This document shows, one piece after another, positions 29,773 to 57,207 of a DNA stretch of 64,000 bases (its first letter is position 1; every line of letters begins with the position of its first letter). Location: NCBI GenBank assembly GCA_023898465.1, contig CP060223.1:64001-128000 (forward strand), in the 5' to 3' direction. The position numbers and the translations under genes were made by a program. This DNA is from Candidatus Nomurabacteria bacterium. GTDB taxonomy: Bacteria > Patescibacteriota > Patescibacteriia > HK-STAS-PATE-3. A model generated the notes under the pieces. It was not told where the DNA came from. It saw only the letters and a program-made list of their open reading frames with translations, and did not search any database.

Positions 29773-29814
29773 GAGAGTATATTGAATACATCGCACATGA
29801 AAGGGGGTGGCGAT

Positions 29815-31351: not shown

Positions 31352-31371
31352 TCGCGGTTAACTTATCACCT

Positions 31372-31962: not shown

Positions 31963-31963
31963 T

Positions 31964-32728
31964 ATGGAATCTACGCAATCAACAACTTTTACAAGCAAAT
32001 TACTACGCCGCAAAGGCGTGGTCAGCATCGTGGTGTTATTGGCTCTGGCGATGAGCTACGGCGTGCTCTTAACTCAACCTTTTCTTTATCAGGCACGTGT
32101 GGAGCTGCTTATTATTCAGCAGCAGTCAGAGAATCAAGATTTACTCTCTGCACTTCGCGCCACTGAACAGGTTGGTAAAGGCTTAGTTGATGTTATTAGC
32201 ACCAGTTCATTCTTTGATAAGGTGCTGGCAACCGACTTTCCAATTACTGATGATTTCGGCACAAATCCGGAAGAGCGTCGCTTAGCTTGGCAAAAAACTG
32301 CCCATGCATCTATTTCTCAGCAATCTGGAATCTTAACAGTCACCGTGCTGCACAAGAATAAAGAGCAGGCAGCGGTGATTGCCCGCGGCGTGGCGCAAGT
32401 ACTTACCACCGAGAGTCAAGAGTTTCACGGTAAGGCAAATATCATTGTGAAGGTAGTAGATGATGTCTATACCAAGCAATGGCCTGTGCAACCAAACATT
32501 CTTGGTACTACCGTAGCCGCGCTTTTCTTTGGCATCATTGCCGGTGTTGGAATTGTCGCCCTCCTTCCTTTGCCAAAAGCAAAAGAAGCCGCGCCAGCAA
32601 TTCGTCGTACTGAAAATGATATGAGTGGAGCAGCGCCAAGTGCGCGAAAGACTTTGCATGAAATACGTATGAAGTCGACTCCGCCTCCGAGCCTACCGGG
32701 CATCGATGAAGAGGAAGACGATCTCTAA
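31964..32728 (+). CDS. Wzz/GumC-like polysaccharide chain-length determinant family protein
   Basis: It has N- and C-terminal TM helices flanking a ~170-aa domain. The ATG lies 2 nt after the upstream stop. Confidence 0.4.
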   Translation: MESTQSTTFTSKLLRRKGVVSIVVLLALAMSYGVLLTQPFLYQARVELLIIQQQSENQDLLSALRATEQVGKGLVDVISTSSFFDKVLATDFPITDDFGTNPEERRLAWQKTAHASISQQSGILTVTVLHKNKEQAAVIARGVAQVLTTESQEFHGKANIIVKVVDDVYTKQWPVQPNILGTTVAALFFGIIAGVGIVALLPLPKAKEAAPAIRRTENDMSGAAPSARKTLHEIRMKSTPPPSLPGIDEEEDDL

Positions 32729-32861
32729 CACGTCGTGCATTCTCAAGGGATGGAAGAGCTTCCATCCCGGAATGAGTGCGAGACCCGTACTCTGAACGTT
32801 GACAATTGAACGTATCAGGACTGGTTCCTGCATACGACGAGATAAACTTGGAGGTTTCCGT

Positions 32862-34085: not shown

Positions 34086-34335
34086 TGTACGAATCCTGGC
34101 CACTTGGTCAGTACTCATAACTCGTCGGGTGGTCAGGAGATCCGTAAGGATTTCTACAAAAGGACCTAAGGGTCCGCGACCTGTGCCGAACGCACACGGA
34201 GGACAACATGCGAAAGCGTGCTCCGCCGACTATCTGATGAGCTTGTGTAACTGACCATGCCCCAATCAACTTGTTTGGGGCTAGGGATTAACCTGCCCCG
34301 ACAACAAAAAATTGGGGCAAGCCAAGGAGGAAGCC

Positions 34336-35625: not shown

Positions 35626-35667
35626 TCGCCAGCCCTGGGAACGCTGACGATTGCACATTCTTGCCCC

Positions 35668-35712
35668 GCCCGCTACAACACTTTGTGTTGAAGCGCGGCG
35701 GGGCTTTCTTTT
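35668..35712 (+). terminator. intrinsic terminator (GC hairpin + ctttctttt)
   Basis: The sequence is gccccgcccgct...agcgcggcggggc followed by a T-run. A TTGACA promoter lies 70 nt downstream (35782). Confidence 0.5.
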
Positions 35713-36010
35713 ACCTTGGCAGGATGGAAATGTAACTAGTCTTCAAGTTCTGATGTTTGTTGAAGCAATGTTTCGTAGGGCTTGACAAAATAGCACTTTT
35801 CCTGCTAAAGTTCGCCGTTAACCAATGCGTAAAACCATCTAAAAAACGAACATTTTTACCACAACGACCTTAGTCGTTTGTGCTACTTATGGACATGAAT
35901 GGCTTGAGAAATGCCTAGCATTCCTCAACCGATTCTGGACCGGAAGTACTGCAGTAATTGTCATTCTTTGACAATTGAATTCAGAAGTCATTCTCACAGA
36001 GGAGGGTCTC

Positions 36011-37207
36011 ATGCGGACCTGGTATGTGGTTCTTGCGCTACTGGCGCTCGTCTCCTTTGGGTCCGCTCGGGCCCAGGTCATCGAAATCCCGATCGACTAC
36101 GTCGCGACGGATTCGGTGATTGCGAACTGGCCGCATCTCAACATCGGGGGCAACCCGGTGTACAAGAGCGGCTACCCGGCTGATTCCTTGGCAGTACATG
36201 CTGCTCGGGACGGCTGGTTCAAGACGACCTTCAACTTTCCCGTCGGGATCTACTGTCTCGATAAGGATGGGAAGATCATCAAGGGACGTGTCGAACCCGG
36301 ACAAACCATGAAGAATGGTGCCCGGGCCGATACGCTGATCGTGTCTATTCTAGCTGAGACGCCGGAGCAGACGCTGTATCAGATCCACGTTATTCAGGCG
36401 TGCGGTAACCCCGTGCTCTGGTCAGGCGTCGGTGTGTTGAAAGCACCGAAGCCGACTGGCCCACTGCCGCCGCCAACCCTGACTGTTCCGAAGCCCCCAG
36501 CACCACCTCCCATTGCGGAGACGGAGCCGCCGATCGTAGTAGAGCCTGAAAAACACTTCAGGCTACCGATCGATGGTTGGGCTGGAGTGGCAGGAAGTAA
36601 GTCACTCGAGTCCAAGGCTTGGTCGCTCTTCGAGGGCGTCTACATCGACTTTCCGTTGATCGTGGACAAGCTCACGTTCAAGTTTGGGGCGGCAACGTCT
36701 CAGGCAAACTACGAGAAGCTCCGTGGTCGGACGAGTTACCGAGGTGTTGGCGGCGATATGAGTCGCTGGCAAGTCGGCCTCTTCTACCGGCCTTGGGACA
36801 ACATCCAGGTTACCGGCCTGATTGGTCAGCAGTATGACCATAAGGCTGGCGACTGGCAGGATGGCGTCCAGCTGGAAGGAGTGCTGGGTTTCCCCATCGG
36901 TCGCTGGTGGAACGATGAGGATGTCAGCTACGGCACTACGACCAAAGCACTTTGGTTCCGCACTCGACATGCCTACAAGCTGTCGGGTGAAGGAATGCAT
37001 TGGTGGTCGATCGGCGGCGAGTTTGTCTATGACTCGTTCATGGACAACGATGGTCGATTCTACACTTCGCGCGTTCACGTATTTGGGAAGCGAGAGTTTC
37101 CCGGATTCTGGAATCGCGAGGCTGTCTTCATCTTCGGTGGCGGAAGAGGGAGTAAAGACGAGGCTTGGGGCCTCATAGCAGAACTAGGGCAGCGGCTCTG
37201 GTTCTAG
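36011..37207 (+). CDS. secreted OMP-like protein: signal peptide, N-domain, Pro-rich linker, C-terminal beta-barrel-like domain ending in Phe
   Basis: The signal peptide is MRTWYVVLALLALVSFGSARA, with a GGAGGG RBS. The linker is PKPTGPLPPPTLTVPKPPAPPPIAETEPP. It ends in ...GQRLWF*. The architecture matches the gene at 32862. Confidence 0.6.
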   Translation: MRTWYVVLALLALVSFGSARAQVIEIPIDYVATDSVIANWPHLNIGGNPVYKSGYPADSLAVHAARDGWFKTTFNFPVGIYCLDKDGKIIKGRVEPGQTMKNGARADTLIVSILAETPEQTLYQIHVIQACGNPVLWSGVGVLKAPKPTGPLPPPTLTVPKPPAPPPIAETEPPIVVEPEKHFRLPIDGWAGVAGSKSLESKAWSLFEGVYIDFPLIVDKLTFKFGAATSQANYEKLRGRTSYRGVGGDMSRWQVGLFYRPWDNIQVTGLIGQQYDHKAGDWQDGVQLEGVLGFPIGRWWNDEDVSYGTTTKALWFRTRHAYKLSGEGMHWWSIGGEFVYDSFMDNDGRFYTSRVHVFGKREFPGFWNREAVFIFGGGRGSKDEAWGLIAELGQRLWF

Positions 37208-37221
37208 AAGGGAGATTCCTG

Positions 37222-38385
37222 ATGCGTTTTCTCCGTTTCATGGCCGCTGCGCTGTTGCTGCTCGGTGCCTTCGGGTGCCAGAAGCTCCCCAGCGAGCCGA
37301 TCGACACCGGTGGCAGTCAGCCGCCGCAGGAGTACAACGGACCTGAGTCTGGTCTCGCGCTCAACTTCGAGCGTGGCGCCGGACAATACGAATTCGTTTC
37401 CGACATGTTCATCCATCAGGGTGGCGTGACGGATTGGGCGACTGTAACAGTCAACCCGGATAACTTCTTCCTCACCACCTACGCTGGACACTGGTATAGC
37501 GACATGCTGACCAGGGACGGTGTGCCGGTGCTGGGAGACTACACTCTGGCCGGTTCGACTCCGTCCAACTACTGGATGGATGAGAACCGCGGTGTTTTCG
37601 CGAGCCACATGGTTCTCGTCAGCGACGCTGACAGTGCCTGGGTCTGGCAGTGGCCCTCCAATGCCAGCCAGTTGGTCGACCTCGACATCGAGGTGCTCAA
37701 CTGGTCATCGGCAACGGATCTTGGCGTGGTCGGTACGCCGACGTGTTACGTCGTGCACCCGGCCATGTTGAACCACTTGCATGACAACGTCTACGGACGC
37801 TCGCTACGCCTCCTGCCCGGTGATGCCAAAATCGCTGTGATGGATATGTACGAGCGAGTTGGTCTGGGTGATGCAGTCACGGTCCGTATCAACGGCACCG
37901 AGCTGGTCGCCTACGTCGATGACTTCACGCATGACAACCAGCCGACGGTACATCGTTACTTCCGCTTTCACGTGAACGCGGATGGGACGGTGAGCTCGAT
38001 CGGTACTGAGAACCGATTCTCGTATGGGAACACGGTCTCGGTCAGCAATTCCAATATCGATCCCAGCGCTACGGTGTATCTCAACGGCACAGGCCTCACC
38101 AACGGTGAGATGATGCCGATGACCTATGTCGGCAGCTGGACCTGGCAGCTCACCGGTCTCACGACCTGGGTGGGCGAGCAGGATTTGAGGGTGAGTATGG
38201 AAGACGGGACTGGTGTGTTTCGTACCGTTCGCTTGAACGGAACGGAGTTGCACCACCTGGCTGCCGTGCCGCTCGACCCGGATCCTCCGATCCAGGTCTT
38301 CCGATGCACGCCCATGCATGACCACACGGTGATGCAGGGCGAGGACAACCGGGCCGCTGACATCGGCATGGAGACCGGCGGATGA
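37222..38385 (+). CDS. lipoprotein, unknown function
   Basis: The lipobox is LLLLGAFGCQK. An RBS gaagggag is present. Confidence 0.6.
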   Translation: MRFLRFMAAALLLLGAFGCQKLPSEPIDTGGSQPPQEYNGPESGLALNFERGAGQYEFVSDMFIHQGGVTDWATVTVNPDNFFLTTYAGHWYSDMLTRDGVPVLGDYTLAGSTPSNYWMDENRGVFASHMVLVSDADSAWVWQWPSNASQLVDLDIEVLNWSSATDLGVVGTPTCYVVHPAMLNHLHDNVYGRSLRLLPGDAKIAVMDMYERVGLGDAVTVRINGTELVAYVDDFTHDNQPTVHRYFRFHVNADGTVSSIGTENRFSYGNTVSVSNSNIDPSATVYLNGTGLTNGEMMPMTYVGSWTWQLTGLTTWVGEQDLRVSMEDGTGVFRTVRLNGTELHHLAAVPLDPDPPIQVFRCTPMHDHTVMQGEDNRAADIGMETGG

Positions 38386-39869
38386 GCGAAGAAGGTGATG
38401 CGACAAGTCGTGAGGTGCCTCCCCAAGTAAGAGAGGTACTTCGCCAAATGCAACGAGTCGCGAAGAGAGATCGCAAAAAGAAGGCGAAGCATCGAGCCCG
38501 CAGAGAGGAACGGAAAAAACAGGCAAAGGCAAGAGTGAAAGCTCGAACGGGTGAGCAGTCAACAGGTTCTCCAAGGAAAGGAGATGAACCTCGTCGTCCT
38601 GTTCCGCCGCCTCAGCCTGCACCAAGTGCTTCGCCGTCCTACGCATCTCTACTGGGAGATAAGCTTGGGGGAATTCCTCAAGTAAGACGAAATCCGAAGA
38701 GAGCAGAAACAAACCTGGGAGGCTCGCCGAGCTTCCCCCAAGATGAGGAGGGTCATGTAATGCCCGAGGTGTCCATGCGCGAAGAAGGAGGATCGAGGAA
38801 GCTTTTGATTGCCACTGTGGCGATCTTGTGCGTCCTCTTGGTCGGGGTGCTGATCTACACGCATCCCTGGAGTCCTCAGCAAGGTCTGACGGAGACCGAG
38901 GTGTCGGATATGATCAGGGAGTTCGCTGATCAGATGCCGGCTCCGGTCGCTGAAATCCCCGATGACGTGGTACGCAAGGGTGACCTTGCTTCGATGCAGC
39001 CGGCGGCGATCACTCTCAGCGCTTTCGACGAGACCTATCTCGATACGCTGTGGGCGACGGTCAAGGATCCGGTGACCGGGAAGATCGACTCGACGATGGT
39101 CGTGAAGACCCGGACGAGGAATCCCATCACTGATTTGCAGAAGGACGTGAAGAGTACCAATGCCGAGGCTCGTGCAGCCAAGGTTGCGGCACGGAATGCG
39201 GAGAAGCGTCTCAAGGAGACGCCGACCCAATTCGCCGTGACCGTGCCTTCGACTTCCACATCGACTTCGCTTCACCAGCCTGGTGGAGTGCAGTTGGGTG
39301 GTACCACGACCACGACGGCGCCTGTGCAGATGACGACTCGAACGAGTACGCAAGCCGGGCTGGTGGCTGGTACGATCGGAGGTGGTTCGCCGCCCCCGCC
39401 GCCGGCTAGCAACGTCGCTGTGTCCATGACTACCACGATGGTTCCGGCCGGTGAACAGGTGATGGGTGGGGACGGCTTGATGAAGCAGGGTCCGGCCGTT
39501 GCCTTTGTCTACAACGGTCAGACCTACGTTCGTCGGGATCTGGTGCAGCGCAACAAGTACGGCGACCCGATCAACCCCAGTCGAGCTGACCAGAACTTCT
39601 ACGTGATGGCCGGCGAGCAGGGGATGAACTGGAAGCTCGTCAATCCGGCCAAGCAGAAGATGACGGTCCAGGGCGACTATTTGGTCTGGCCTGGCGTGAT
39701 CAAAGGTCCTTTCCAGGTCGGCTGGGTGGATCCGAACGACCCGGCCTACATGCCTGAAAGTGGCGTAGTCTGGGCTCCGATCGCTGAGTTCTACTCCGGC
39801 TACGACGGGACCTTCTGTCGTGACCCCGACTATCAGTTGAGGGCTGTGGCGATCCAGCAGATGCCGTAG
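38382..39869 (+). CDS. membrane-anchored protein: K/R-rich cytoplasmic N-tail, one TM, T/S/P-rich region, C-terminal ~130-aa domain shared with the gene at 40047
   Basis: An ATGA overlap joins it to the upstream gene. The TM is LLIATVAILCVLLVGVLIY. The C-terminal segment GPAVAFVYNGQTYVRRDLVQRNKYGDPINP...GDYLVWPGVIKGPFQVGWVDPNDP...VWAPIAEFYSG aligns with residues ~265-375 of the next gene. Confidence 0.6.
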   Translation: MSEEGDATSREVPPQVREVLRQMQRVAKRDRKKKAKHRARREERKKQAKARVKARTGEQSTGSPRKGDEPRRPVPPPQPAPSASPSYASLLGDKLGGIPQVRRNPKRAETNLGGSPSFPQDEEGHVMPEVSMREEGGSRKLLIATVAILCVLLVGVLIYTHPWSPQQGLTETEVSDMIREFADQMPAPVAEIPDDVVRKGDLASMQPAAITLSAFDETYLDTLWATVKDPVTGKIDSTMVVKTRTRNPITDLQKDVKSTNAEARAAKVAARNAEKRLKETPTQFAVTVPSTSTSTSLHQPGGVQLGGTTTTTAPVQMTTRTSTQAGLVAGTIGGGSPPPPPASNVAVSMTTTMVPAGEQVMGGDGLMKQGPAVAFVYNGQTYVRRDLVQRNKYGDPINPSRADQNFYVMAGEQGMNWKLVNPAKQKMTVQGDYLVWPGVIKGPFQVGWVDPNDPAYMPESGVVWAPIAEFYSGYDGTFCRDPDYQLRAVAIQQMP

Positions 39870-39897
39870 TCCGCGACTGCAACGTTCTTTACTTCAA

Positions 39898-39936
39898 CCC
39901 CCGCTATATCTACGGATGTAGCGGGGCTTTCTTTTT
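39898..39936 (+). terminator. intrinsic terminator (cccccgcta-N12-tagcgggg + T-run)
   Basis: A perfect 8-bp stem is followed by ctttcttttt. Confidence 0.7.
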
Positions 39937-39943
39937 ACTATGC

Positions 39944-39972
39944 TTGACAAAATGCCAAAAATAGCATACTAT
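39944..39972 (+). promoter_or_regulatory. sigma70 consensus-like promoter (TTGACA-N17-TACTAT)
   Basis: The sequence is cttgacaaaatgccaaaaatagcaTACTAT, 75 nt upstream of the 40047 start. Confidence 0.6.
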
Positions 39973-40046
39973 AGCCGGTTCTTTTTGCACCTCACAATCT
40001 AGTTACACAAGCGAGAGACACTACACATCCCAACCGGGAGGACTAC

Positions 40047-41225
40047 ATGCTCCAACGTTTCTTTGCGTGGTCTTTGCTGGCGCTCTTCGCCTTCGGCTGT
40101 GCCGGAGGTAGTGCCACGCTGAAGCAGCATCAGCAGCCCGTCGGGCAGGTCTACGTGGGCGACTGCGTGCCGTCGGATGGCATTCATCCGACTGGCTACC
40201 TTCGCCTGACCAAGCCGCCGGAGGACTTCAACTCGATGCTGTCGATGTGGCACGCTGTTCAGGCCGAGGGTTCATCCGAGCCCTCGAAGATCGAGGTCGA
40301 CTACATCCGGGTCTACGCCCACGTAGCCGGCCGCGATTCACTGCTCGACAGCGACGAGTACAACGACATGATCGGGGACGGAGGTCTCTATCTTCGTCAT
40401 CCCTCGTGGTTCTACAACGATGACCATACGAGTCTGCCCTGCGAGTTCGACATGGTCAACGGTTACTTGGTCTTGCGACCGAGCGACTACCCGGATCGAG
40501 TCTTTCACTGGTGGAATTCCTACCATCCAGCGGAGGATGTCTGGCGTGTCACTATTCCGGCCGGTGCTACCAACTGCTGGGCAGAGACTCGGATTCGGAT
40601 TACGGGTCCAGCCTATGTCCAGGGCGGCATTGACTACTGGCGTTCACTCACTGCTCCGTACGGCGGCGTCGAAGTGAACAACCGGGAAGCCTGCATGTCC
40701 AACTGGACTTGCTCGGCTGATCCGGGTTGGCAGACCATCGTGGTTGGTAAGGACAAGCCGCAGGGCGACAGCGCTGTGGTCGATGCCGATGAGAACGGGA
40801 AACCGAAAGTCGTCCAGGCTCCGGTCTACGATCCTTTCGAGAGCAAGGCCGACGGTCTCCTCAAGAAAGGCGCTGCTGTCTGTTTTGTACAAGACGGACG
40901 CACCTACTTCCCGAAGGAGATCGTGGCGACGAACAAGTACAGCGATCCGGCTCGCCCCAAGAATGGCAAGTACTACTTGCTGGGCGGGGTGAAGCCATGG
41001 GCTATCGCCGGCGACGATCAAGAGCTCCGGGAAAACGGGGATTACCTCTACTATCCCGGCGTGGTCGACAAGGTGTGTCAGGTGGGCTGGGAGGATCCGG
41101 CCGACGCTTCGGCCGATCCGTCCGGAACCGTATGGAGCGCTTCAGCGGAACTTTTCTCGGGTCGCCCGGGATCAGTTTCGAAGAACGGTCAGTACGGCTA
41201 CCTGCCAGTCAATCTCTCCAACTAG
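40047..41225 (+). CDS. lipoprotein with C-terminal domain paralogous to the gene at 38382
   Basis: The lipobox is LLALFAFGCAGGS, with a GGGAGG RBS. The C-terminal segment AVCFVQDGRTYFPKEIVATNKYSDPARP...GDYLYYPGVVDKVCQVGWEDPAD...VWSASAELFSG aligns with the upstream gene. Confidence 0.6.
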   Translation: MLQRFFAWSLLALFAFGCAGGSATLKQHQQPVGQVYVGDCVPSDGIHPTGYLRLTKPPEDFNSMLSMWHAVQAEGSSEPSKIEVDYIRVYAHVAGRDSLLDSDEYNDMIGDGGLYLRHPSWFYNDDHTSLPCEFDMVNGYLVLRPSDYPDRVFHWWNSYHPAEDVWRVTIPAGATNCWAETRIRITGPAYVQGGIDYWRSLTAPYGGVEVNNREACMSNWTCSADPGWQTIVVGKDKPQGDSAVVDADENGKPKVVQAPVYDPFESKADGLLKKGAAVCFVQDGRTYFPKEIVATNKYSDPARPKNGKYYLLGGVKPWAIAGDDQELRENGDYLYYPGVVDKVCQVGWEDPADASADPSGTVWSASAELFSGRPGSVSKNGQYGYLPVNLSN

Positions 41226-41334
41226 GAGAAGGTGATTCACCCCGGTGCATGCAATGCGTGCGCCGGGTTTTCTTATTGACCATGGGCAATATTTTTGCTA
41301 TAGTCGCCTGTTCACTTTCTTTTACTGAGTTGTA

Positions 41335-43107
41335 ATGTTACGCAATATTCTTGTCATTCTCGGACTCGCCATTTCACTCACCAGCTTCACGCCAAAGCAG
41401 GAGAGTCGCGATGGCGTGTATGCGTTTACCACGCCTCCTTTAAGTATTGGTCAAGGAGTGGTGGTGACAAATGATGGCATTGTGATTGGCGATGGCGTGA
41501 CTGATTCCCGGCAAGGAATACAGGAGCTGCTTAGTGGTGATGACTTGGAACATTTTCTTGACCAAAGCTCTCAGCAGTTTGATGCCGTAGAGCTGCGTAT
41601 CTGGACATGGTTCCTGGGTCAAAACGATTTTACTATTGGCACGGTGAATAATTTCCTTGCCCGTGCTCATGCCCACGGCTTGCAAGTGTACTTAAATACT
41701 TGGGAATATCCTGGCACACATCCCGACCTTCTGCCTGCTGAGTATCAGGCATATAAACTTGCTGACACCGGACAACGCGTGCCGGCCCTAGTGAATGATG
41801 GACAAATCAGCGCGCAGCACATTGATAAAGCAAACCCCGCTGCACTGGAATGGATGAGTGGGCAACTGCGGAGTGCGCTGACTTCTTTTGACGTTTTCGA
41901 TGGATACCTCATTGTTGAGGATAGGGTTTCCGATTGGGTGCATGGGTCTTTCCCACAGTATGTACGTTATTGGGATTCACCGACCTATTCCGATGCAGCG
42001 CTTGATTCATTTCAACATTATCTCCTACTGCATGGTCAGGATGCAACACAGCGATTCCCAGTGGATCGTCCGGAGTTAGTTTCTCAATTCACCCAGTATG
42101 TTCCTTCAGCCCCAGAAAGTGCTTTATGGAAGTATTGGTATCAATGGCGCTTTGAACTTTTTGCTGACTATGTGGAGAGTCTGAGTAATGCGGTGAAGTC
42201 AGTGCAAAGGGTGCCAGTGCTTTACATGCCTTGGCAACGTGTGGTGGATGAATTTGATTACGCCTACGCTGATGATTGGTCAGCCAATCGTTGGGATGTT
42301 GGATACGGTCCGGGCAATCCCGAGAATGCCATCTTCGGCGTCTCGCTTCACACCCTGGCAAAACGCGGATCAATTGATGCCTACGTGCATGAATTTGGAG
42401 AGGATGGTACGCATGAGCTCTGGCCAATGTCTTTTAATGCGCTGCAGTTAGAAAAAGCCAAAATTGCTTTGTCAGATTCTTATGTTACCCTAGGCAGCTT
42501 TATTCAATTTTTTAATTACGAAGGTAGAGAAATAGTTTCCCCTGAACTACTTCAAGATGCCTTAGCCATCGGACGGCAAAACGAGGCAAAGATTTTTGTA
42601 GCTTACGATGTTGCCACACTGTATGATCGTTCAGGTCGCTATGATGCACATACCTCAGCGCTTTGGCAGCAAGCAAGAACACATGCATATGCCATTGATG
42701 AAGAGGAAATCCGAAACGCAAGTCAGCTAGCGCCAGCGCAGGTTTTTGCTCGAAAATTACCTGAACAGATTCCAGAAGGAGTGGCCGCCTGGACTGCCGA
42801 TGATGGGTATGTGTATGTGCGGACCGAGGCTCTGCCCGGTAACGGACCATACTATGTCGTATACGATCACTGGAATGCACCACTACTTGATGCGCAGCAC
42901 CTTATGGAATACTATCCAGAGCATGGTTTAGTCGCTATACATGCTGATGGGTTAAAAGGCGCTGCTTTTCAAATCATTACTCCGGGACCGCAGGGTAGCG
43001 TCGCGTGGTCAGAAATTCGTGAACAGCTTTGTGAGCTGGGGTATCAAGGGATCGTATGTAGCCCAAATAGTTGGCTTTATCAACCAGTGGGGCTTCATTC
43101 CATGTAG
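41335..43107 (+). CDS. secreted protein, putative TIM-barrel glycoside hydrolase-like (tentative)
   Basis: The signal peptide is MLRNILVILGLAISLTSF. NTWEYPG and YLIVEDRVSDW are possible clan GH-A acid/nucleophile-like motifs. A terminator and a promoter (TTGACC-N17-TATAGT) lie upstream. Confidence 0.35.
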   Translation: MLRNILVILGLAISLTSFTPKQESRDGVYAFTTPPLSIGQGVVVTNDGIVIGDGVTDSRQGIQELLSGDDLEHFLDQSSQQFDAVELRIWTWFLGQNDFTIGTVNNFLARAHAHGLQVYLNTWEYPGTHPDLLPAEYQAYKLADTGQRVPALVNDGQISAQHIDKANPAALEWMSGQLRSALTSFDVFDGYLIVEDRVSDWVHGSFPQYVRYWDSPTYSDAALDSFQHYLLLHGQDATQRFPVDRPELVSQFTQYVPSAPESALWKYWYQWRFELFADYVESLSNAVKSVQRVPVLYMPWQRVVDEFDYAYADDWSANRWDVGYGPGNPENAIFGVSLHTLAKRGSIDAYVHEFGEDGTHELWPMSFNALQLEKAKIALSDSYVTLGSFIQFFNYEGREIVSPELLQDALAIGRQNEAKIFVAYDVATLYDRSGRYDAHTSALWQQARTHAYAIDEEEIRNASQLAPAQVFARKLPEQIPEGVAAWTADDGYVYVRTEALPGNGPYYVVYDHWNAPLLDAQHLMEYYPEHGLVAIHADGLKGAAFQIITPGPQGSVAWSEIREQLCELGYQGIVCSPNSWLYQPVGLHSM

Positions 43108-43135
43108 GGAGTTCTTTGTCAGAGGAGGAGTGAAT

Positions 43136-43600
43136 ATGCAGTGGAGGTTGTGGATCTACGTGTTGGCTTGCGTACTGTGCGCATCGCAGTCTGCGTACGG
43201 TCAGTCTGAGCAATTCCAGCCAATGTACAGCATAGCGCCAGAGTATCCACTTTCAGCGTGGATTGCTGGTGAGTCTGGGTCGGTGATGGTGGGAATGCAG
43301 ATTGACCCGGTCGGCCGTGTGGAGGAGGTCTGGGTTCAGTCTTCAACAAGCTCGTTGTTTGAGCGGTATGCGCTCGAGGCGGCGAAGCAGTGGGTTTTTG
43401 TACCGATCATGCCCATGGTGGATCTGATCGACGCGGTGGATGGCGTTATGGTCTTGCGTAGAATTCCGGAGCTTGAAACAGCGAGTTACCTGGAAACACA
43501 TCCGGGAATCATTGACAGTCTCGTCTACGAGTGGACGGAAAAACAGGACCAACCGTCCCCGGTCCGTAGCGTCAGTATCCCTTTCAATTTCAACCACTAA
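43136..43600 (+). CDS. secreted TonB C-terminal domain protein (stand-alone, no Pro-rich/TM part)
   Basis: The RBS agaggagg precedes the start, and a signal peptide is present. The motif YSIAPEYPLSAWIAGESGSVMVGMQIDPVGRVEEVWVQSSTSSLFERYALEAAKQWVFVP matches the TonB_C fold signature (YP..A...G.SG.V.V.F.I...G.V). Confidence 0.55.
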   Translation: MQWRLWIYVLACVLCASQSAYGQSEQFQPMYSIAPEYPLSAWIAGESGSVMVGMQIDPVGRVEEVWVQSSTSSLFERYALEAAKQWVFVPIMPMVDLIDAVDGVMVLRRIPELETASYLETHPGIIDSLVYEWTEKQDQPSPVRSVSIPFNFNH

Positions 43601-46623: not shown

Positions 46624-48411
46624 TTATTCAGACAAGGCGTTGCGGCGAGCGCTTAGCTCACTAAATTGTTCGAGCAAGTGCTGTACCTGCTCCTGATTTT
46701 GCTCTGTCTCTGCCTGACGAAGGGCTGCTTGGACTGTTGCGATGGACTGCTCGATGCTTCGTTTGAGGAGGAAATGTGCGCAAGTGCGCAGCTCTTTTGA
46801 GAGCTCTCCAGTTTGGCGTCCATCAAAATATTGTGCAGCGAATAATTGAAGCTGCGGAATCTCAGAAGCGAGTTCCGGTGCTCGGCGTGTTATTTCGCGT
46901 TGCAAATCGTCAAGACTGACAGAGTGGTTACTAGTATACTGATCTCGTAGTATCTTGTAAAGGGTGTGATAGGGGGGGTGAAGCAGCTCAGCCTGGAAGT
47001 CCGCTGGCAGCGAGTCAAGGAATTCTAGCTGATGGATGAGTAGGGCGGCGAGAAGTTGACTGACCTGCCAATGGCGACCTTGGCGTGGTTGCGCTACTTG
47101 CGCGGGATTTACTGTGCTTGCTTTTGGTCGAGGCGTTTTTCCTTTTTGCATTTGTTCTCGTAGCAACTCCTCATTCACCTGGACGGCCTGCGCAAGTTTC
47201 GAGAGATAGTGACTCTGCTCAACGGGATTTGCCACCATGGTAAGTAAAGGAAGGAGATTTTTTACTGCCTTCTTTTTATCATCAACCTTTGTCAGATCAA
47301 GCGGGGCAAAAGTGCTGCGAAGCGCATAGTCGAGATAAGGCTCTGCTTTTGCCACTGCCTCGGGCCAAGCTTTTGGATCTTGTCGAATTAATTCATCCGG
47401 GTCTTTGCCGCTTGGTACGCTGATGACCTTAATGGTAAATTCTTGCTGCAAGGCTAGCTCAATACCGCGACGGGTAGCTGATTGTCCGGCCATGTCAGTA
47501 TCAAAGCCGATGAGGAGAGTATCAGTGAAGCGTCGGATAAGCTTCAATTGATCAGTGGTAAGCGCTGTTCCACTAGCAGCGATCGCCTGCGTGACGCCAA
47601 CGCGATGTGAGGCAATCACGTCCAGATAGCCTTCCACAACAATTGCATAACCAGCACTTCGGATTGACTGCTTCGCCAGATGCAGGCCATAGAGCACTGT
47701 GCTTTTGTTATACACGTCGCTTTGCGGGGAGTTCACATACTTTGCCGCATCCTCAGGTGCTGGCGGCATTACGCGACCACCAAAGCCAATCACATTGCCG
47801 TGCACATCAGCAATTGGAAACATGAGTCGGTTGCGGAAGCGGTCATAATAGCGAGCGCTACCTTCTTTTTGCTGGAGTAGGCCAGCTCGGGCCATGTCGA
47901 GGTCCTTGATATTTTTTTTGGCTAAAGCGTTTTTTACATTTTCCCAGCCCTCTGGCGCAAAGCCGATTTGGAAGTTTTCAATGTCCTCGCTCGTAATACT
48001 CCTCTGCTCTATATACTGCCGCGCCGAGGCTGCTTCTTTCGCCCGCAGGAGGACTTGGTGATAAAAACGAGACGCAGTAGCCAGGATATCCAGCAGGTGC
48101 GTTCGTTGATCTTGCAGTTTGGGGTCAAAGCGAGGAATCTCGACATTGGCCTTCTTTGCCAGCAGGCGGAGTGTCTCAGGGAAGTCCATACCTTCCATCT
48201 CTTGGATAAAGGTAAAGAGATCACCACCTTTACCACAGCCAAAGCAGTGCCAGATGCCATTTGCTCGATCCACCATAAAGGAAGGTGTCTTTTCATGGTG
48301 AATAGGACACAGAGCCTTATGATACTTCCCGGATGGTTTGAGCGTGACGTACTCGCCAATCAGCTCAACCAGGTCCAGACGCTGCTTAATTTCATCGGTG
48401 ACTTGGGCCAT
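46624..48411 (-). CDS. dnaG: DNA primase DnaG
   Basis: The CHC2 zinc finger is CPIHHEKTPSFMVDRANGIWHCFGCGKGGD. A TOPRIM segment (...VVEGYLDV...GFDTDMAGQSA) is present. Confidence 0.9.
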   Translation of the reverse strand: MAQVTDEIKQRLDLVELIGEYVTLKPSGKYHKALCPIHHEKTPSFMVDRANGIWHCFGCGKGGDLFTFIQEMEGMDFPETLRLLAKKANVEIPRFDPKLQDQRTHLLDILATASRFYHQVLLRAKEAASARQYIEQRSITSEDIENFQIGFAPEGWENVKNALAKKNIKDLDMARAGLLQQKEGSARYYDRFRNRLMFPIADVHGNVIGFGGRVMPPAPEDAAKYVNSPQSDVYNKSTVLYGLHLAKQSIRSAGYAIVVEGYLDVIASHRVGVTQAIAASGTALTTDQLKLIRRFTDTLLIGFDTDMAGQSATRRGIELALQQEFTIKVISVPSGKDPDELIRQDPKAWPEAVAKAEPYLDYALRSTFAPLDLTKVDDKKKAVKNLLPLLTMVANPVEQSHYLSKLAQAVQVNEELLREQMQKGKTPRPKASTVNPAQVAQPRQGRHWQVSQLLAALLIHQLEFLDSLPADFQAELLHPPYHTLYKILRDQYTSNHSVSLDDLQREITRRAPELASEIPQLQLFAAQYFDGRQTGELSKELRTCAHFLLKRSIEQSIATVQAALRQAETEQNQEQVQHLLEQFSELSARRNALSE

Positions 48412-48499
48412 ACCTGCATTCTGTCTTAGCTGAGCAAAAAGAACAAGTCAAGCTTCCTTGACAGCAGGGTGATGCTACAGTAGGCTCTGAATACGCACA

Positions 48500-48700
48500 T
48501 TAGTATCTCACTTCATAGATGAGGAACTCCGGTGAAAATCCGGGGCACTGCCGGTACGGTATCCTACCTTCGCTAAAGCTATGGTGGGGAGCCCGATACT
48601 CAGCTATGTTGTTTCAATCGTTCTTCCTCCGAGCAGAGGACAAGGCGTGCAAGTGCACTGTGCGTTATGACTTCTGCTCGAAACAGAAGTTTTATTCTTA
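48500..48700 (+). promoter_or_regulatory. structured 5' leader, candidate cobalamin-riboswitch-like element with intrinsic terminator (48671-48699)
   Basis: A TTGACA at 48458 precedes it. The motif GAGGAAcuccGGUGAAAAUCCgg resembles the cobalamin riboswitch core AGGGAA...GGUGNAANUCC. GCACUG B12-box-like elements are present. The terminator cttctg-ctcgaaa-cagaag+ttttattctt lies just before the RBS of the DUF4430 gene. A confident covariance-model hit is lacking. Confidence 0.3.
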
Positions 48701-48712
48701 TCTCAAAAAAGT

Positions 48713-49555
48713 ATGCGAGTATTTCAGGTATTCTTGTTTGTCCTCATGATGAGTTTCAGTTTGCCCGTAGTGGCGCAGACGAGCGCTCCTCAAGTAAATG
48801 TAAGAGTTGAATCCGCGGATTCCACCTTGTTCAATAGTTCGGTGCTGGTCGACGCCTGTACGGTGACTGATACCAGTGGAGATGTGCATGAGTATGCTGC
48901 TGGCGCAGGAGTTTGTGCAATGGTGGCAGCGGCCGATCAAGCGGGAATCAGCTACAGTTTTCAAAATTTTGATTTTGGTCTTTTGTTGGCTGCGGTGAAT
49001 GGTGTAGATAATGGAACTGATGAAAACTGGATCTATTGGGTGAATGATAAGGCGGCAACAGTTGGGATGACAGACTATGTATTGCAAGAAGGTGATGAGT
49101 TTCTATTAGCGTACGTGCCCTGGACTGCCTCACCACTTCGCTTAACGCTTGAAGAAAGTGCAACACAGGCAGGTGAAGCTATCGCGCGGGTGACTGCGTA
49201 TTCGATTGATGATGATGCTTTTCTCCCAGTCGATGGAGCAAAGGTGAAGGTAGGAGAAGTCGAGGGTGTAAGCAACGCAGCTGGTGAAGTAACCCTGCGA
49301 GCAAGTGCAGCTGGTCGCTATATGGTGCAAGCGGAAAAAGAAGGATATGTCCGCAGCACTATGCAAGATTTTCATCCAGAGGATGTTGCGACAGATGCCG
49401 AATCTGATGAAGAAGGTGTAGTGGTGCTCAGCTCAGCCGATGCTACGGCCTCAGAGTCTGATCAATTCTCTACTACGCAAAGAACCGTGCTTTGGTTAGC
49501 CGGAATCGGCGTCCTACTTGCCTTTAGTATTGGCTTTTTCCGTCGAAACGGATAA
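48713..49555 (+). CDS. secreted DUF4430 (transcobalamin-like) domain protein with C-terminal TM anchor
   Basis: The signal peptide is MRVFQVFLFVLMMSFSLPVVAQT. A ...NWIYWVNDKAAT...EGDEFLLAYVPW motif is present. A C-terminal hydrophobic helix is followed by RRNG. Confidence 0.55.
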   Translation: MRVFQVFLFVLMMSFSLPVVAQTSAPQVNVRVESADSTLFNSSVLVDACTVTDTSGDVHEYAAGAGVCAMVAAADQAGISYSFQNFDFGLLLAAVNGVDNGTDENWIYWVNDKAATVGMTDYVLQEGDEFLLAYVPWTASPLRLTLEESATQAGEAIARVTAYSIDDDAFLPVDGAKVKVGEVEGVSNAAGEVTLRASAAGRYMVQAEKEGYVRSTMQDFHPEDVATDAESDEEGVVVLSSADATASESDQFSTTQRTVLWLAGIGVLLAFSIGFFRRNG

Positions 49556-49600
49556 GGGTTTGGTCAGGGCAGTATCAACTTGATATACTGATACTGCCCT

Positions 49601-50599
49601 ATGACCACCTTATCAAAAAACGAACAGGGGATACTCGCCACCTTGGCATATTTTGATGTATTTGATTATCCTTTGCGTGAAGAGGAAATACTGCGCTGGT
49701 TTTACGTCACCTCTCCAAGCGAGCATTGGGAAAAGTCGACCGTCCAAGAAACCCTACGACACAGTCAGGCTTTGTCCGAGTATATTGAGCAGCGTGAGGG
49801 TTGGTATACCTTAAAACATCGAGGTCAGCTCATTGAACGTCGAGTTCAGCGAAGGAGGATAAGTATGCGAAAATGGCGAATCGCTCGTTTTGCTACTCGC
49901 TTGCTTCGGGTTATTCCTTTTATTCGCATGGTGGCGGTTTGCAACACGCTGGCTTTAAATAATGCCAGAGAAGAGAGTGACATTGATTTTTTCATTATTG
50001 CGCGTCAGGGTCGTATGTGGACCATGCGTTTCCTCACAACGACCCTGCTTGATTTTGCTCGCATACGGCGCAAGGGCGCGGCGATTAAGGATAAAATTTG
50101 TCTGAGTTTCTATGTAACTGACGCGGCTATGAATTTGGAGCCTTTGCGTTTGCAGCCGGTTGACCCGCACTTTGTGTATTGGGCTGATCAGTTTGTCCTG
50201 TTGTATGACACTGCCGCAGTGTTTCAGGACTACCAGCAGGCGAATGTCTGGGGCAAGCAATATTTGCCCTTTGCCTTTTCTCAGTCTTCCCAGCCACAGA
50301 TACGAGATACCTTATTGACCAGCATGATGAAGCAAAGCGCGGAGTGGATTTTAGGTGGGCGTATTGGCGATTGGTTTGAGAAGTTCTTCCGTCGCATTCA
50401 GCTGCGCAAGATGGATCGGAATGTGCATAGCCGAGCATGGGAGAATGACAGTCAGGTGATTATCTCTGACAACATCCTCAAATTTCATGAGCAAGATCGA
50501 CGCGAAGAATATCGCCGTCTTTTTGAAGGCCGCTTATGGGAAATTTTGCGCAAGCCACGACCCGTAGTAGGGGAAGAGCATAGACCGCCTTTGGAGTGA
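49601..50599 (+). CDS. hypothetical protein with putative nucleotidyltransferase-fold motif (...NAREESDIDFFII...)
   Basis: A 332-aa uninterrupted ORF. An h-x-x-SDID-hhh motif follows a G/S-poor loop. No further assignment is possible. Confidence 0.35.
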   Translation: MTTLSKNEQGILATLAYFDVFDYPLREEEILRWFYVTSPSEHWEKSTVQETLRHSQALSEYIEQREGWYTLKHRGQLIERRVQRRRISMRKWRIARFATRLLRVIPFIRMVAVCNTLALNNAREESDIDFFIIARQGRMWTMRFLTTTLLDFARIRRKGAAIKDKICLSFYVTDAAMNLEPLRLQPVDPHFVYWADQFVLLYDTAAVFQDYQQANVWGKQYLPFAFSQSSQPQIRDTLLTSMMKQSAEWILGGRIGDWFEKFFRRIQLRKMDRNVHSRAWENDSQVIISDNILKFHEQDRREEYRRLFEGRLWEILRKPRPVVGEEHRPPLE

Positions 50600-56104: not shown

Positions 56105-56809
56105 ATGCCAACTCAATCTGAACATATTCATGAGCGATACGGGGATGACTCGTATCGCTCAGTGGAATTACGAAACCCGGAAGAACTTCGAGAGTTTGCA
56201 TTAGCATTTCGTCAGTACTACGGTAAGTCTATAGCGGATGTGACACAGGAAGAGAAAGAGGTAGATGCTTTGACTGAGCGTTTACTTGAGCAGCAAAAGG
56301 ATTCGGCGGCGAGTGTGCGTTTCTATGGTATGCGATACGGCACGAAGTTGGTTGCTACTGGACGCTTAAAAGTGAGCACTGATCCAAGTACTGGAGAGCG
56401 AGTTGCTTTACTTTCGCATTTGTCAGTTGATCCAGATCATCGTGGCAAAAAAATAAGCACTCGATTAAGTGTTGAACGTATTGCAGAAGCGCAGCACCTA
56501 GGGGCAAGTCGTATCCTGGCTCATGTAGCGCAGCATAATGTTGCCTCACTAAGCTTGAAGCTGCGTGAAGGATTTCAGGTGACCGGATTTGTCTATTATG
56601 ATGCAGCGAAGCAGCACGGTCGTTTTGAGCTATCGCAAAACCTTCCCAGCAATAAGGCCGGCTCAGTTTCATTTGAACAACGTGAAGTGTTGCTGAGCGA
56701 CACAAAAACGCTTGATGAGCTATTACACTCGGACTGGGTGGGGATTGCGCTTAGGGGCACTAGAGAGGAACCAAGCCTGGAGATTCGCAAACATCTCTCT
56801 TCCCAATAG
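56105..56809 (+). CDS. GNAT family N-acetyltransferase
   Basis: A motif A-like segment reads ALLSHLSVDPDHRGKKISTRLSVERIAEAQHLGASRILAHV. Confidence 0.5.
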   Translation: MPTQSEHIHERYGDDSYRSVELRNPEELREFALAFRQYYGKSIADVTQEEKEVDALTERLLEQQKDSAASVRFYGMRYGTKLVATGRLKVSTDPSTGERVALLSHLSVDPDHRGKKISTRLSVERIAEAQHLGASRILAHVAQHNVASLSLKLREGFQVTGFVYYDAAKQHGRFELSQNLPSNKAGSVSFEQREVLLSDTKTLDELLHSDWVGIALRGTREEPSLEIRKHLSSQ

Positions 56810-56812
56810 ATA

Positions 56813-56902
56813 TGGCGGAGAGGGGGAGATTCGAACTCCCGAAGGGCTTTCACCCTTACTTGCTTTCCAAGCAAGCGCACTAGGCCACTATGCGACCTCT
56901 CC
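56813..56902 (-). tRNA. tRNA-Ser (anticodon GGA), long variable arm, CCA encoded
   Basis: The reverse complement is GGAGAGGTCGCATAGTGGCCTAGTGCGCTTGCTTGGAAAGCAAGTAAGGGTGAAAGCCCTTCGGGAGTTCGAATCTCCCCCTCTCCGCCA. Confidence 0.85.
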
Positions 56903-57207
56903 ACGAATTATTTTTTTCTTATCGTGCCGTTCAGTAAGGCGTGAAATTGCACACCGCCTTTGTATTTCTTTATTCTTAACTCTGCTTTTCGTGCCTCGCT
57001 CCTTGTTCCATACTTTTCCGCATATATTATTTCCAGGGAACTCCAGACTTCGTTGATCGAACACGAGACGCATTGTGCTCAATTATTCTTGTGGATATAT
57101 TTTCACAATGGCCTATATAATACCTTCCTGTTTTTTCGCTTTGTAGAATATATGTTATAAACATACATTTTGCTTTCTGCCGCGGAGCGGCATCCCGCCC
57201 CGCGGGA

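Follow-up and report, generated by a model that had tools for sequence, protein, structure and literature searches.

The described family that best matches the element reported here is the AdoCbl riboswitch aptamer RF01482 (clan CL00101), which we take to be the eut-type element of Enterococcus and Listeria, of class Cbl-IIb. Members of Cbl-IIb are defined by the absence of a P2 arm, a J1/3 that is paired or mismatched, and a short P6 hairpin (PMC7367189). A kissing loop between L5 and L13 is shared by every class of cobalamin riboswitches (PMC7367189; PMC6158498), and in one survey, 37 of 38 functional cobalamin riboswitches had a terminator-type expression platform (PMC9600662).

We examined a leader in the window, which is the 64-kb stretch of DNA that was analyzed as a whole. 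An earlier note had proposed that this leader is a cobalamin-type riboswitch, perhaps a variant one. We think it likely that positions 48497-48699 form a Cbl-IIb-like class-II cobalamin riboswitch, a transcriptional OFF switch for one gene whose product is a membrane-anchored, extracytoplasmic protein with the transcobalamin beta-domain fold. More generally, the leader is very probably a B12-sensing RNA switch that turns off the gene for a surface-anchored, transcobalamin-like protein. It very probably belongs to a known type of element, as a divergent member overlooked at standard annotation thresholds, rather than to a new one. The host is most likely one of the ultrasmall Patescibacteria (CPR). 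All features described below are on the + strand, and the motif, hexamers, hairpin, and start codon that had been described in the leader all lie where the earlier note placed them.

A full-length match to RF01482 below the curated threshold

At the gathering thresholds, an Rfam scan of the whole window reported two tRNAs and no riboswitch. Below these thresholds, cmscan aligned 48497-48650 to the whole of RF01482 (positions 1-149 of the 149 in the model) with a score of 43.5 bits, which falls short of the curated gathering score of 50 bits. The match is nevertheless significant: E = 7e-7 on a 401-nt region, and E = 1.1e-4 for the window, as computed over 64 kb, both strands, and 4227 Rfam families. 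Across those 4227 families, it is the sole riboswitch-family match in the 64 kb, and no other family competes for it. RF00174 ranks below RF01482 and was not reported in the window at its gathering score of 31.5 bits, so neither of these CL00101 families reaches its threshold (43.5 vs. 50 bits for RF01482; 31.5 bits for RF00174).

The aptamer core alone scores 32.9 bits against RF01482, and the P13 hairpin contributes the other 10.6 bits. When the core was scanned without P13, RF01482 was again the best family, while the score of RF00174 was masked by the same-clan filter. The leader also folds more stably than shuffled sequences (z = -2.49). A custom covariance model of the core (R1) found no other instances in ~950 kb of loci, including ~25 CPR loci.

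Thus, a covariance-model check of the original proposal gives a divided answer. No score is above threshold, but the match is full length, its window-wide E-value is low, and all of the core helices are intact, which supports the cobalamin-type reading. The suggestion of a possible divergent variant also held up.

Structure of the proposed aptamer

The aptamer core lies at 48510-48612, as placed by cmscan with RF01482, and we checked its helices base by base. The four-way junction of P3, P4, P5, and P6 is present, with GGAA in J3/4 and A in J5/6. P1/P3 (48514-23 with 48599-608) forms 9 of 10 pairs and is continuous except for a single A.G mismatch. J3/4 is GAA (48524-26), and GAGGAAC is found at 48521-48527. 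All pairs form in P4/L4 (48527-44, with the T-loop UGAAAAU), in P5/L5 (48547-55, ACU[GCC]GGU), and in P6 (48557-59 with 48593-95). The L4 T-loop hairpin, CCGGUGAAAAUCCGG at 48529-48543, is an exact match to the clan consensus GGUGNNAAUCC. J5/6 is A48556, J6/3 is AUA (48596-98), and P6 carries a small, fully paired extension hairpin (48563-68 with 48583-88) with a 6-bp stem and a 14-nt loop.

As far as sequence can tell, this architecture is Cbl-IIb-like: there is no P2 arm and no J1/3 loop, and the P6 hairpin is short. The traits of Cbl-I are absent from the RNA, which has neither a P2 arm nor a large P7-P11 extension of P6. Given class IIb and the best match to RF01482, the cobalamin that is sensed would be AdoCbl.

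As comparators, we used three metagenomic, canonical members of RF00174 (L083, L084, and L085), which score 37-41.5 bits against the gathering score of 31.5 bits. These were the only returns of a DNA-pattern search of metagenomes; they have higher GC content and are not orthologues. In the alignment of the leader with these three, 54 of 54 cells pair. Three pairs differ in both partners, and no pair is lost: the closing pair of P4 is C-G instead of G-C, and two pairs of P5 are A-U and C-G instead of U-A and G-C. If the partner columns are slid, pairing drops to 20-53%.

The original proposal described the match as partial because the canonical segment CCCGCCACUGU was not obvious. We found this segment in a covaried form, GCCGGUACGGU, with its flanking helices re-paired. 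More specifically, the highly conserved GCCACUG (the 3' strand of P5, the A of J5/6, and the 5' strand of P6) is GGUACGG here. The A is kept and both of the adjoining helices are re-paired; ACGG is shared with canonical L083-85 and GGU is not. Read from the letters, the segment has kept its structural role and not its sequence.

The B12 box (AGYCMG) is on the 3' side of P6 and J6/3, where the sequence is AGCCCG-AUAC-UCAGC (48590-604). Its AGCCCGAUACU portion is also found in three above-threshold members of RF00174. The hexamer GCACUG occurs twice in the leader (48545-50 and 48655-60) and had been described as B12-box-like. We do not agree, because the real equivalent of the B12 box is AGCCCGAUACUCAGC at 48590-48604: the first hexamer is J4/5 and the 5' strand of P5, and the second belongs to the apical hairpin of the antiterminator, where it falls in the loop and the 3' strand.

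Predicted expression platform

A putative promoter lies at 48458-48486. The TTGACA that was reported earlier is indeed present as a -35 box (48458-48463) and is followed by a 17-nt spacer and a weak -10 box, TAGGCT (48481-86). However, even this best -10 box matches just 3 of 6 positions, so a scan for the sigma-70 consensus gave no promoter call. If the assignment is correct, then transcription would start near 48493.

Three overlapping and mutually exclusive pairings follow the core, an arrangement to be expected of a transcriptional OFF switch. The first is the P13/L13 hairpin (48619-48647), which forms completely and aligns to the 3' hairpin of RF01482. It has an inner stem of UCCUC (48625-29) and GAGGA (48636-40), a loop of CGAGCA (48630-35), and an outer stem of CGUU and GGCG. 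P13 is presumed to be the kissing-loop partner of L5, and either CUGC (48548-51) with GCAG (48633-36) or CGG (48552-54) with CCG (48629-31) may be the pairing. L5 is UGCCG, which is not C-rich, and its complementarity to L13 is 3-4 bp and ambiguous between these two candidates.

The second is an antiterminator (48630-48680), in which CGAGCAGAGG (48630-39) pairs with CUUCUGCUCG (48671-80). Its apical hairpin is formed by GGCGUGCA (48644-51) and UGUGCGUU (48659-66), with the loop AGUGCAC. The antiterminator dominates both the minimum free energy and the centroid structures from RNAfold. Its predicted energy is -27.2 kcal/mol, versus -7.9 for P13 plus -8.2 for the terminator, which implies that the default state is ON and that switching requires P13 to be locked by the ligand.

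The third is an intrinsic-terminator-like hairpin (48669-48699) of GACUUCUG and CAGAAGUU, with the loop CUCGAAA and the tail UUUUAUUCUU. The earlier note had recognized its inner part, CUUCUG (48671-76) with CAGAAG (48684-89) followed by UUUUAUUCUU ending at 48699, as an attenuator. In agreement with that, a consensus scan called a terminator-like site at 48669-48691 (8 pairs, 3 of them G-C, and a loop of 7), and this hairpin overlaps both P13 and the antiterminator. The terminator is weak (-8.2 kcal/mol), and its run of four U's is interrupted by an A. A ribosome-binding site had also been placed after the terminator, but we found no recognizable Shine-Dalgarno sequence before the ATG (48713); only about one-third of the genes in the window have one.

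An orthologous leader

We found a single orthologous leader (L001), whose protein is 47% identical. It is a partial sequence in which the 5' half of the aptamer, including L5, is missing. The two leaders share blocks of 17, 14, 11, and 10 nt that are 100% identical, while third-codon positions of the two genes are just 36-43% identical and synonymous sites are saturated. As had been anticipated for homologous leaders, structure is conserved in this single, partial sequence, although any comparison of the platform effectively involves two lineages, the window and L001. The pairs that form in L001 include 7 of 7 in the P6 extension, 5 of 5 in P13, 9 of 9 in the antiterminator, 5 of 5 in the apical hairpin, and 8 of 9 in the terminator, which retains its U-run.

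Some of these helices have changed in sequence. The P6 extension of L001 is a 7-bp stem of other sequence: five of the first six pairs are standard in both leaders, with two one-sided changes. In P13, CCUCCGAGCAGAGG is identical and the outermost pair is G-U in L001 instead of U-A. The apical hairpin has one compensatory change, from G-C to A-U. The equivalent of the terminator is ACUUCUGCU-uug-AGCUGAAGU followed by UGUUUUGUUUUU, with 8 of 9 pairs.

The DUF4430 protein had just two matches in indexed searches, whether the query was the single sequence or a two-sequence profile: an identical copy and the relative at 47% identity. A protein search of genome and metagenome collections found no relatives, and neither did a DNA-pattern search of a viral collection. 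An exhaustive HMMER search identified 1432 distant homologues of the module. Using a 17-sequence profile, we obtained five more distant DUF4430 proteins, with DNA for four of them. No cobalamin riboswitch accompanies any of these four genes, which belong to archaea, lie inside an operon, or follow an unstructured gap.

The presumed target gene

The gene at 48713-49555 encodes a 280-aa protein with a signal peptide, a DUF4430 (transcobalamin beta-domain-like) domain, an Ig-like domain, an acidic linker, and a C-terminal transmembrane anchor. The description of its product as a secreted, transcobalamin-like DUF4430 protein is borne out. It matches Pfam PF14478 (DUF4430) with 32.9 bits, above the cutoff of 23.8 (E = 9e-8), and the family profile matches the beta domain of transcobalamin-2 (5no0; E = 3.5e-4). 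The AlphaFold model (pLDDT 87.7) has transcobalamin, haptocorrin, and intrinsic factor as its best matches in Foldseek, with a TM score of 0.80 to the isolated beta domain (5no0). In the literature, we found no experimental report of B12 binding by any bacterial DUF4430 protein. We considered BtuH of Bacteroides as a characterized relative and rejected it, as its literature never mentions transcobalamin. The 64-kb window contains no B12-dependent enzyme or B12 transporter that we could find.

A perfect 12-bp hairpin (49566-49600) lies between the stop codon of the DUF4430 gene and the start of the next gene, and may mark where the riboswitch-controlled transcript ends. It is kept in L001 with compensatory changes, and it is absent upstream of homologues of the next gene (p332) in CPR genomes without a DUF4430 gene. 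A -10-like box for the next gene, TATACT, lies in the loop of this hairpin. We also considered whether the downstream gene, which encodes 332 amino acids, belongs to the regulon. This was rejected: in CPR genomes without the DUF4430 gene, the downstream gene keeps its synteny with groES, and its own -10-like box is close to its ATG.

Proposed mechanism and alternative explanations

We propose that, without B12, the 3' part of P13 (48630-39) would pair with 48671-80 to form the long antiterminator, so that polymerase would read through and the B12-capture protein would be made. When cobalamin binds in the P3-P6 four-way junction, the kissing interaction of L5 with L13 would be stabilized and P13 would be locked. 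This would leave 48669-76 free to pair with 48684-91, and transcription would stop in the U-run before the ATG. Our analysis shows that the aptamer is homologous to the cobalamin clan, that its helices are all intact, that the three pairings exclude one another and are conserved in an orthologous leader, and that the regulated protein has the carrier fold. Binding of the ligand, the form of cobalamin, which bases kiss, and a readout by termination are the parts of this scheme that we infer.

First, the leader might be a genuine cobalamin sensor whose output is translation initiation, Rho-dependent termination, or mRNA decay, with the hairpin and U-run being incidental or auxiliary. Translational riboswitches are known to employ Rho and decay as well (PMC6158498). 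The terminator is marginal (-8.2 kcal/mol, three G-C pairs, and four U's before an A), and the gene, like many in this genome, lacks a Shine-Dalgarno sequence, so initiation may depend on the unstructured, A-rich start region UCAAAAAAGUAUG, which folding could mask. On the other hand, we found no pairing in the folded leader that sequesters the start region. Also, L001 keeps the hairpin and the U-run with another loop and a longer stem, and in both sequences the 3' strand of the antiterminator is the 5' strand of the terminator, which is the classical geometry. We therefore consider an output other than termination to be unlikely.

Second, the fold might have changed in specificity. The re-coded P5 and L5, the GGUACGG segment, and the class-II architecture might together change which ligand is sensed: another corrinoid (MeCbl, HyCbl, another cobamide, or a precursor) or, conceivably, a ligand that is not a corrinoid. 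The selectivity of class II is plastic and is set by peripheral elements (PMC7367189; PMC6158498), the sequences of L5 and L13 depart from the consensus, and the element is below threshold against all three models of the clan. However, the junction nucleotides that in canonical members line the pocket (GGAA, the L4 T-loop, the A of J5/6, and AGCCCG-AUA-C) are identical to those of three above-threshold RF00174 riboswitches, the differences in the stems are all compensatory, and the regulated protein has the fold of a cobalamin carrier. A change of ligand thus seems very unlikely.

A related idea, which we hold to be quite unlikely, is that the element represents a class-II subclass specific to Patescibacteria, with a re-coded L5:L13 kissing pair (UGC:GCA instead of C-rich:G-rich), a further conserved switching contact, and perhaps unusual selectivity for corrinoids. 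The candidate for the further contact is AGUGCAC (48652-58), which forms the palindromic loop at the apex of the antiterminator and belongs to a 10-nt block with 100% conservation in L001. Because this loop is complementary over 5 nt to GCACU of J4/5 and P5 (48545-49), it could unfold P5 in the ligand-free state. Such an "anti-aptamer lock" may be a contact that is undescribed for cobalamin riboswitches. If this idea is correct, then the subclass and the DUF4430 anchor protein would make up a minimal module with which ultrasmall, episymbiotic bacteria scavenge B12.

Third, the resemblance might be due to chance, or the element might be a decayed and nonfunctional relic. Its score is below the curated thresholds and only two lineages carry it, but we view this as highly improbable given the window-wide E-value of 1.1e-4, the intact helices, and the fitting gene context, along with compensatory changes and blocks that stay 100% identical while the proteins are just 47% identical and synonymous sites are saturated.

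Finally, an ATG-initiated ORF (48519-48749, 76 aa) was listed mechanically, but we discount almost entirely that the region encodes a small protein or leader peptide and is not a structured RNA: indels of 2, 5, 1, and 6 nt between the window and L001 break any reading frame, the conserved blocks are unrelated to codon phase, and the ORF overlaps the start of the DUF4430 gene in another frame.

Implications

The preferred reading, a terminator-based cobalamin OFF switch, provides a worked example of a functional-looking riboswitch from a deeply branching and poorly sampled lineage that the curated Rfam thresholds miss. Censuses of riboswitches in Patescibacteria may therefore be undercounts. 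The link to a riboswitch is independent, regulatory evidence that places bacterial DUF4430 (transcobalamin beta-domain) proteins in B12 biology, and it suggests that these bacteria with reduced genomes capture B12 at their surface and repress its capture when they are replete. For inducible expression in Patescibacteria, a recent perspective singled out riboswitches as promising tools (PMC11665869), and a native, ligand-responsive leader would be a natural starting point. Our understanding of how cobalamin riboswitches work is left unchanged by this element.

Comparison with known systems

Like transcobalamin, intrinsic factor, and haptocorrin, the regulated protein has, in its modeled N-terminal domain, their beta-domain fold. 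Unlike these eukaryotic carriers, it is missing the alpha6/alpha6 barrel domain and instead has an Ig-like domain and a C-terminal membrane anchor joined to its beta domain. Among bacterial homologues, P0152 and P0153 do have prenyltransferase-like repeats.

With Cbl-IIa riboswitches (the env8 HyCbl/MeCbl type, and the AdoCbl-variant RF01689), the leader shares the P3-P6 four-way junction, the L4 T-loop, and the small extension of P6. Cbl-IIa is regulated via the L5-L13 kissing loop (PMC7367189), which is presumed in the window's RNA. In contrast, the internal loop at J1/3 of Cbl-IIa folds into a second T-loop, which supports the pocket (PMC6158498), whereas P1/P3 is continuous here except for the one A.G mismatch.

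With the canonical RF00174 members L083-85, the leader has GAGGAA, CCGGUGAAAAUCCGG, GGUGAAAAUCC, GC, A-CGG, and AGCCCGAUACU in common, and L083 and L084 likewise end in a terminator hairpin and a U-run. However, in all three a P2 arm separates P1 from P3, whereas the window's RNA has no such arm, and their P5 is UG/CA with UCCCG in L5, instead of AC/GU with UGCCG.

RF01482 remains the closest described relative, as the best-scoring family and the one that is matched from end to end. In both, the structure is closed by one continuous helix and has no P2 arm. They share the GGAA junction, the GGUGAAAAUCC hairpin at L4, and the AGYCMG box; P5 and P6 are each 3 bp long, P6 is extended by a short hairpin, and a P13 hairpin with CGAG(G)CA in its loop follows on the 3' side. 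They differ in that P5 and P6 are re-coded in the window (ACU/GGU and CGG/CCG, versus GGU/GCC and CUG/CAG in the family), J6/3 is AUAC instead of GUCUUU, and L13 has one G fewer. The element from the window also stands apart in its setting, a Patescibacteria-like genome in which it lies 5' of a B12-binder-like gene.

Evidence for a divergent cobalamin riboswitch

The leader between the divergent dnaG gene (46624-48411, minus strand) and the DUF4430 gene (48713-49555, plus strand; a 280-aa ORF) is very probably a divergent cobalamin riboswitch, judging from its sequence, with a conventional predicted mechanism in an unusual host. With permissive filters, RF01482, the Rfam AdoCbl riboswitch aptamer (clan CL00101), matched 48497-48650 on the plus strand across 149/149 model positions at 43.5 bits (curated threshold, 50 bits). 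The match is statistically solid despite its sub-threshold score: E = 7e-7 when the 401-nt region is searched and 1.1e-4 over the entire window. At gathering thresholds, Rfam identified two tRNAs and no riboswitch in the whole window, and no other riboswitch-family resemblance appeared elsewhere in the 64 kb. The earlier note had proposed RF00174, but in the window scan this family scored below RF01482 and under its own threshold (31.5 bits), its match being suppressed as a same-clan overlap; RF01482 was still best without the 3' hairpin (32.9 bits). Because both scores are sub-threshold, the element lies outside both families by the operational Rfam criterion. The note's core reading, a cobalamin-type riboswitch and possibly a variant, is nevertheless borne out: the match is full length, the helices are intact, and the sequence is divergent. 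Curated thresholds would then undercount riboswitches in CPR.

Aptamer anatomy

The sequence elements that the note reported are all present on the plus strand: TTGACA (48458-63), GAGGAAC (48521-27), the L4 core CCGGUGAAAAUCCGG (48529-43), two copies of GCACUG (48545-50 and 48655-60), and a terminator hairpin with its tail, CUUCUG-cucgaaa-CAGAAG then UUUUAUUCUU (48671-99). We verified the aptamer helices, on the same strand, base by base. P1/P3 pairs CAUAGAUGAG (48514-23) with CUCAGCUAUG (48599-608), with 9/10 pairs and one A.G mismatch. J3/4 (GAA) leads to P4/L4, C-U-CCGG[UGAAAAU]CCGG-G, and J4/5 (GC) to P5/L5, ACU[GCC]GGU. After J5/6 (A48556), P6 pairs CGG with CCG (48593-95) and is extended by CCUACC with GGUGGG around a 14-nt loop; J6/3 is AUA. 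The motif CCCGCCACUGU, which the note did not find, is indeed absent as such but is present in a re-paired form, GCCGGUACGGU (48550-60), which retains the A while both flanking helices are re-paired. The B12-box equivalent is AGCCCGAUACUCAGC (48590-604). The GCACUG hexamers, described as B12-box-like, instead form J4/5 plus P5 and the antiterminator's apical hairpin.

An orthologous leader

An index of 5.8 billion proteins yielded only two relatives of the DUF4430 protein: an identical copy (L002, same locus) and P0002, which is 47% identical and is encoded on L001, a 1.7-kb contig with 151 nt upstream of the gene. The L001 leader is without P3-P5, so this comparison covers the 3' part, leaving aside the kissing loop and the 5' core. 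Across the stretch that they share, the leaders are 62.8% identical, with exact blocks GGGGAGCCCGAUACUCA, CCUCCGAGCAGAGG, GUGCACUGUG, and UGACUUCUGCU; identity is 54% and 68% in the neighbouring coding sequences and 36-43% at third-codon positions. Every helix that L001 covers forms: the P6 extension (CCUGCGC with GCGUAGG, 7/7 pairs), P13 (5/5, with the outer pair changed from U-A to G-U), the antiterminator (9/9), its apical hairpin (5/5, with a G-C to A-U change), and the terminator (8/9, then UGUUUUGUUUUU). A mechanical ORF at 48519-48749 has no coding explanation, because the two leaders differ by indels of 2, 5, 1, and 6 nt.

Expression platform and start region

Three mutually overlapping pairings on the plus strand make up the predicted platform. 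P13 is UCCUC[CGAGCA]GAGGA (48625-40) with an outer CGUU/GGCG stem (-7.9 kcal/mol). The antiterminator pairs CGAGCAGAGG (48630-39) with CUUCUGCUCG (48671-80), enclosing the apical hairpin GGCGUGCA[AGUGCAC]UGUGCGUU (-27.2 kcal/mol). The terminator is GACUUCUG[CUCGAAA]CAGAAGUU plus a U-run (-8.2 kcal/mol), and a consensus scan independently called a terminator-like site at 48669-91. The antiterminator dominates both the MFE and centroid folds, so the predicted default fold is ON. The OFF state would need P13 to be locked via a ligand-stabilised L5-L13 kissing loop, as in all cobalamin riboswitches (PMC7367189; PMC9600662). Candidate kissing pairs are CUGC (48548-51) with GCAG (48633-36) or CGG (48552-54) with CCG (48629-31).

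The 10-nt block GUGCACUGUG (48652-48662), which spans the antiterminator's apical loop and its 3' strand, is 100% conserved in L001 although the stem that it caps covaries. The loop's AGUGC could form five Watson-Crick pairs with GCACU (48545-48549) in J4/5-P5; by sequence, this pairing may be a second switching contact or a coincidence.

Of the promoter proposed at 48458, the TTGACA stands, but no promoter was called there by the consensus scan because the sole -10 candidate at 17-nt spacing, TAGGCT, matches at 3/6 positions. The proposed ribosome-binding site is not identifiable, because the DUF4430 ATG has no Shine-Dalgarno sequence 5' of it; such a sequence precedes only about one-third of the window's genes. 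Overlapping the -35-like hexamer in the divergent region is a perfect palindrome, GTCAAG-CTTC-CTTGAC (48447-48462), which the scan called a minus-strand terminator-like site although its position is upstream of dnaG; it may be an operator or a chance palindrome.

The regulated protein

The DUF4430 assignment is confirmed by Pfam (E = 9e-8), and the protein runs from a signal peptide through a DUF4430 and an Ig-like domain to a C-terminal transmembrane helix. The family profile matches the human transcobalamin beta-domain (5no0, E = 3.5e-4). The top structural matches of the AlphaFold model (pLDDT 87.7) are transcobalamin, haptocorrin, and intrinsic factor; the TM to the beta-domain alone is 0.80. 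The module occurs widely, with 1432 representatives at E up to 0.001, and in some homologues the two-domain carrier layout is complete, with prenyltransferase-like alpha/alpha-barrel repeats. Our literature search turned up no experiment showing that a bacterial DUF4430 protein binds B12. Homology suggests that this one would bind B12, and it is plausibly a B12-capture protein; the leader would link bacterial DUF4430 proteins to B12 through regulation. The window contains neither a B12-dependent enzyme nor a B12 transporter.

Two Methanosarcinales contigs with tandem DUF4430 genes share an identical 50-nt stretch (L087 1018-1067, L089 767-816) within the 3'-terminal part of the upstream copy, some 50 nt short of the gene's end. 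It is small, conserved, and hairpin-rich; its weak mt-tmRNA-like match (34.4 bits vs 65, E = 0.0035) is probably noise.

Neighbourhood and host

The next gene, p332 (49601-50599; 332 aa, without a Pfam or NCBIfam family), lies directly upstream of groES-groEL in many Patescibacteria genomes (L003, L005, L008, L016, L010, L009, and others), with homologues at 32-39% identity (74% in L001). In CPR genomes with no DUF4430 gene, it remains syntenic with groES, and, as in most homologues, a -10-like box stands 11-15 nt ahead of its ATG. Because of this synteny and p332's own -10-like box, the riboswitch unit most likely comprises only the DUF4430 gene, as an insertion between dnaG and a conserved p332-groESL block.

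A perfect 12-bp hairpin, AGGGCAGUAUCA...UGAUACUGCCCU (49566-49600), fills the spacer from the DUF4430 stop to the p332 ATG and has a counterpart with compensatory changes at L001 1001-1036, GGCAGCGU...ACGCUGCC. The loop retains TATACT, a -10-like box, and the stem is not followed by a U-run. Where CPR genomes have no DUF4430 gene, their p332 homologues are not preceded by this hairpin. Possible roles are a 3'-end or stability stem, or control of p332.

The window's GroEL best matches Patescibacteria/CPR MAGs (70-73% identity), and giant fn3/DUF2341 surface proteins and many unannotated ORFs also fit that assignment. A tandem array at 42-24318 encodes very large secreted proteins of up to 1713 aa, which combine fn3, purple-acid-phosphatase-N, DUF2341, and Laminin_G_3 modules; the array includes near-duplicate segments (e.g., 8999-12268 vs 14424-17597) and is followed by an ABC/FtsX (MacB-like) pair. 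Pfam, at E up to 1e-5, matches none of the consecutive ORFs (287-590 aa) that fill about 15 kb at 27857-43107. A TonB_C-domain protein (43019-43600) is unexpected, as the host lineage is thought to be without an outer membrane. A weak match to sX4, a proteobacterial sRNA (56794-56907, minus strand; 30.8 bits vs 70), is almost certainly an artefact of the overlapping tRNA, which has a long variable arm (56816-56902).

The leader would be a native, putatively ligand-responsive element for Patescibacteria/CPR, where such tools are wanted (PMC11665869).

Comparison with known cobalamin riboswitches

A metagenome pattern search for the L4 core joined to AGCCCGAUACU returned three higher-GC loci (L083-85), all bona fide RF00174 riboswitches (37-41.5 bits vs the 31.5-bit threshold). 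All of their junction and loop sequences, A-CGG and AGCCCGAUAC among them, are the same as in the window element; these features therefore fall inside known family diversity. When the four were aligned, 54/54 cells of P3, P4, P5, and P6 were standard pairs, and the stem differences (the P4 closing pair and two P5 pairs) were all two-sided. As a control, sliding the 3' partners by 1-3 columns reduced pairing to 20-53% and abolished the covariation. The alignment is supportive rather than statistical proof because the sample is small and effectively two lineages. L083 and L084 likewise end in terminators, the norm for the class (37/38 functional examples; PMC9600662).

All classes share the L5-L13 kissing loop. 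A P2 arm and a large P7-P11 extension mark Cbl-I; Cbl-IIa carries a T-loop in J1/3, and its P6 extension is minimal; in Cbl-IIb, which binds AdoCbl, J1/3 is short and either paired or mismatched, and the P6 hairpin is short (PMC7367189). The E. faecalis type is without an identifiable J1/3 (PMC6158498). The window RNA, with its continuous P1/P3 containing one mismatch and its single P6 hairpin, has the Cbl-IIb layout, which is consistent with RF01482 as the best model; by analogy only, it may prefer AdoCbl.
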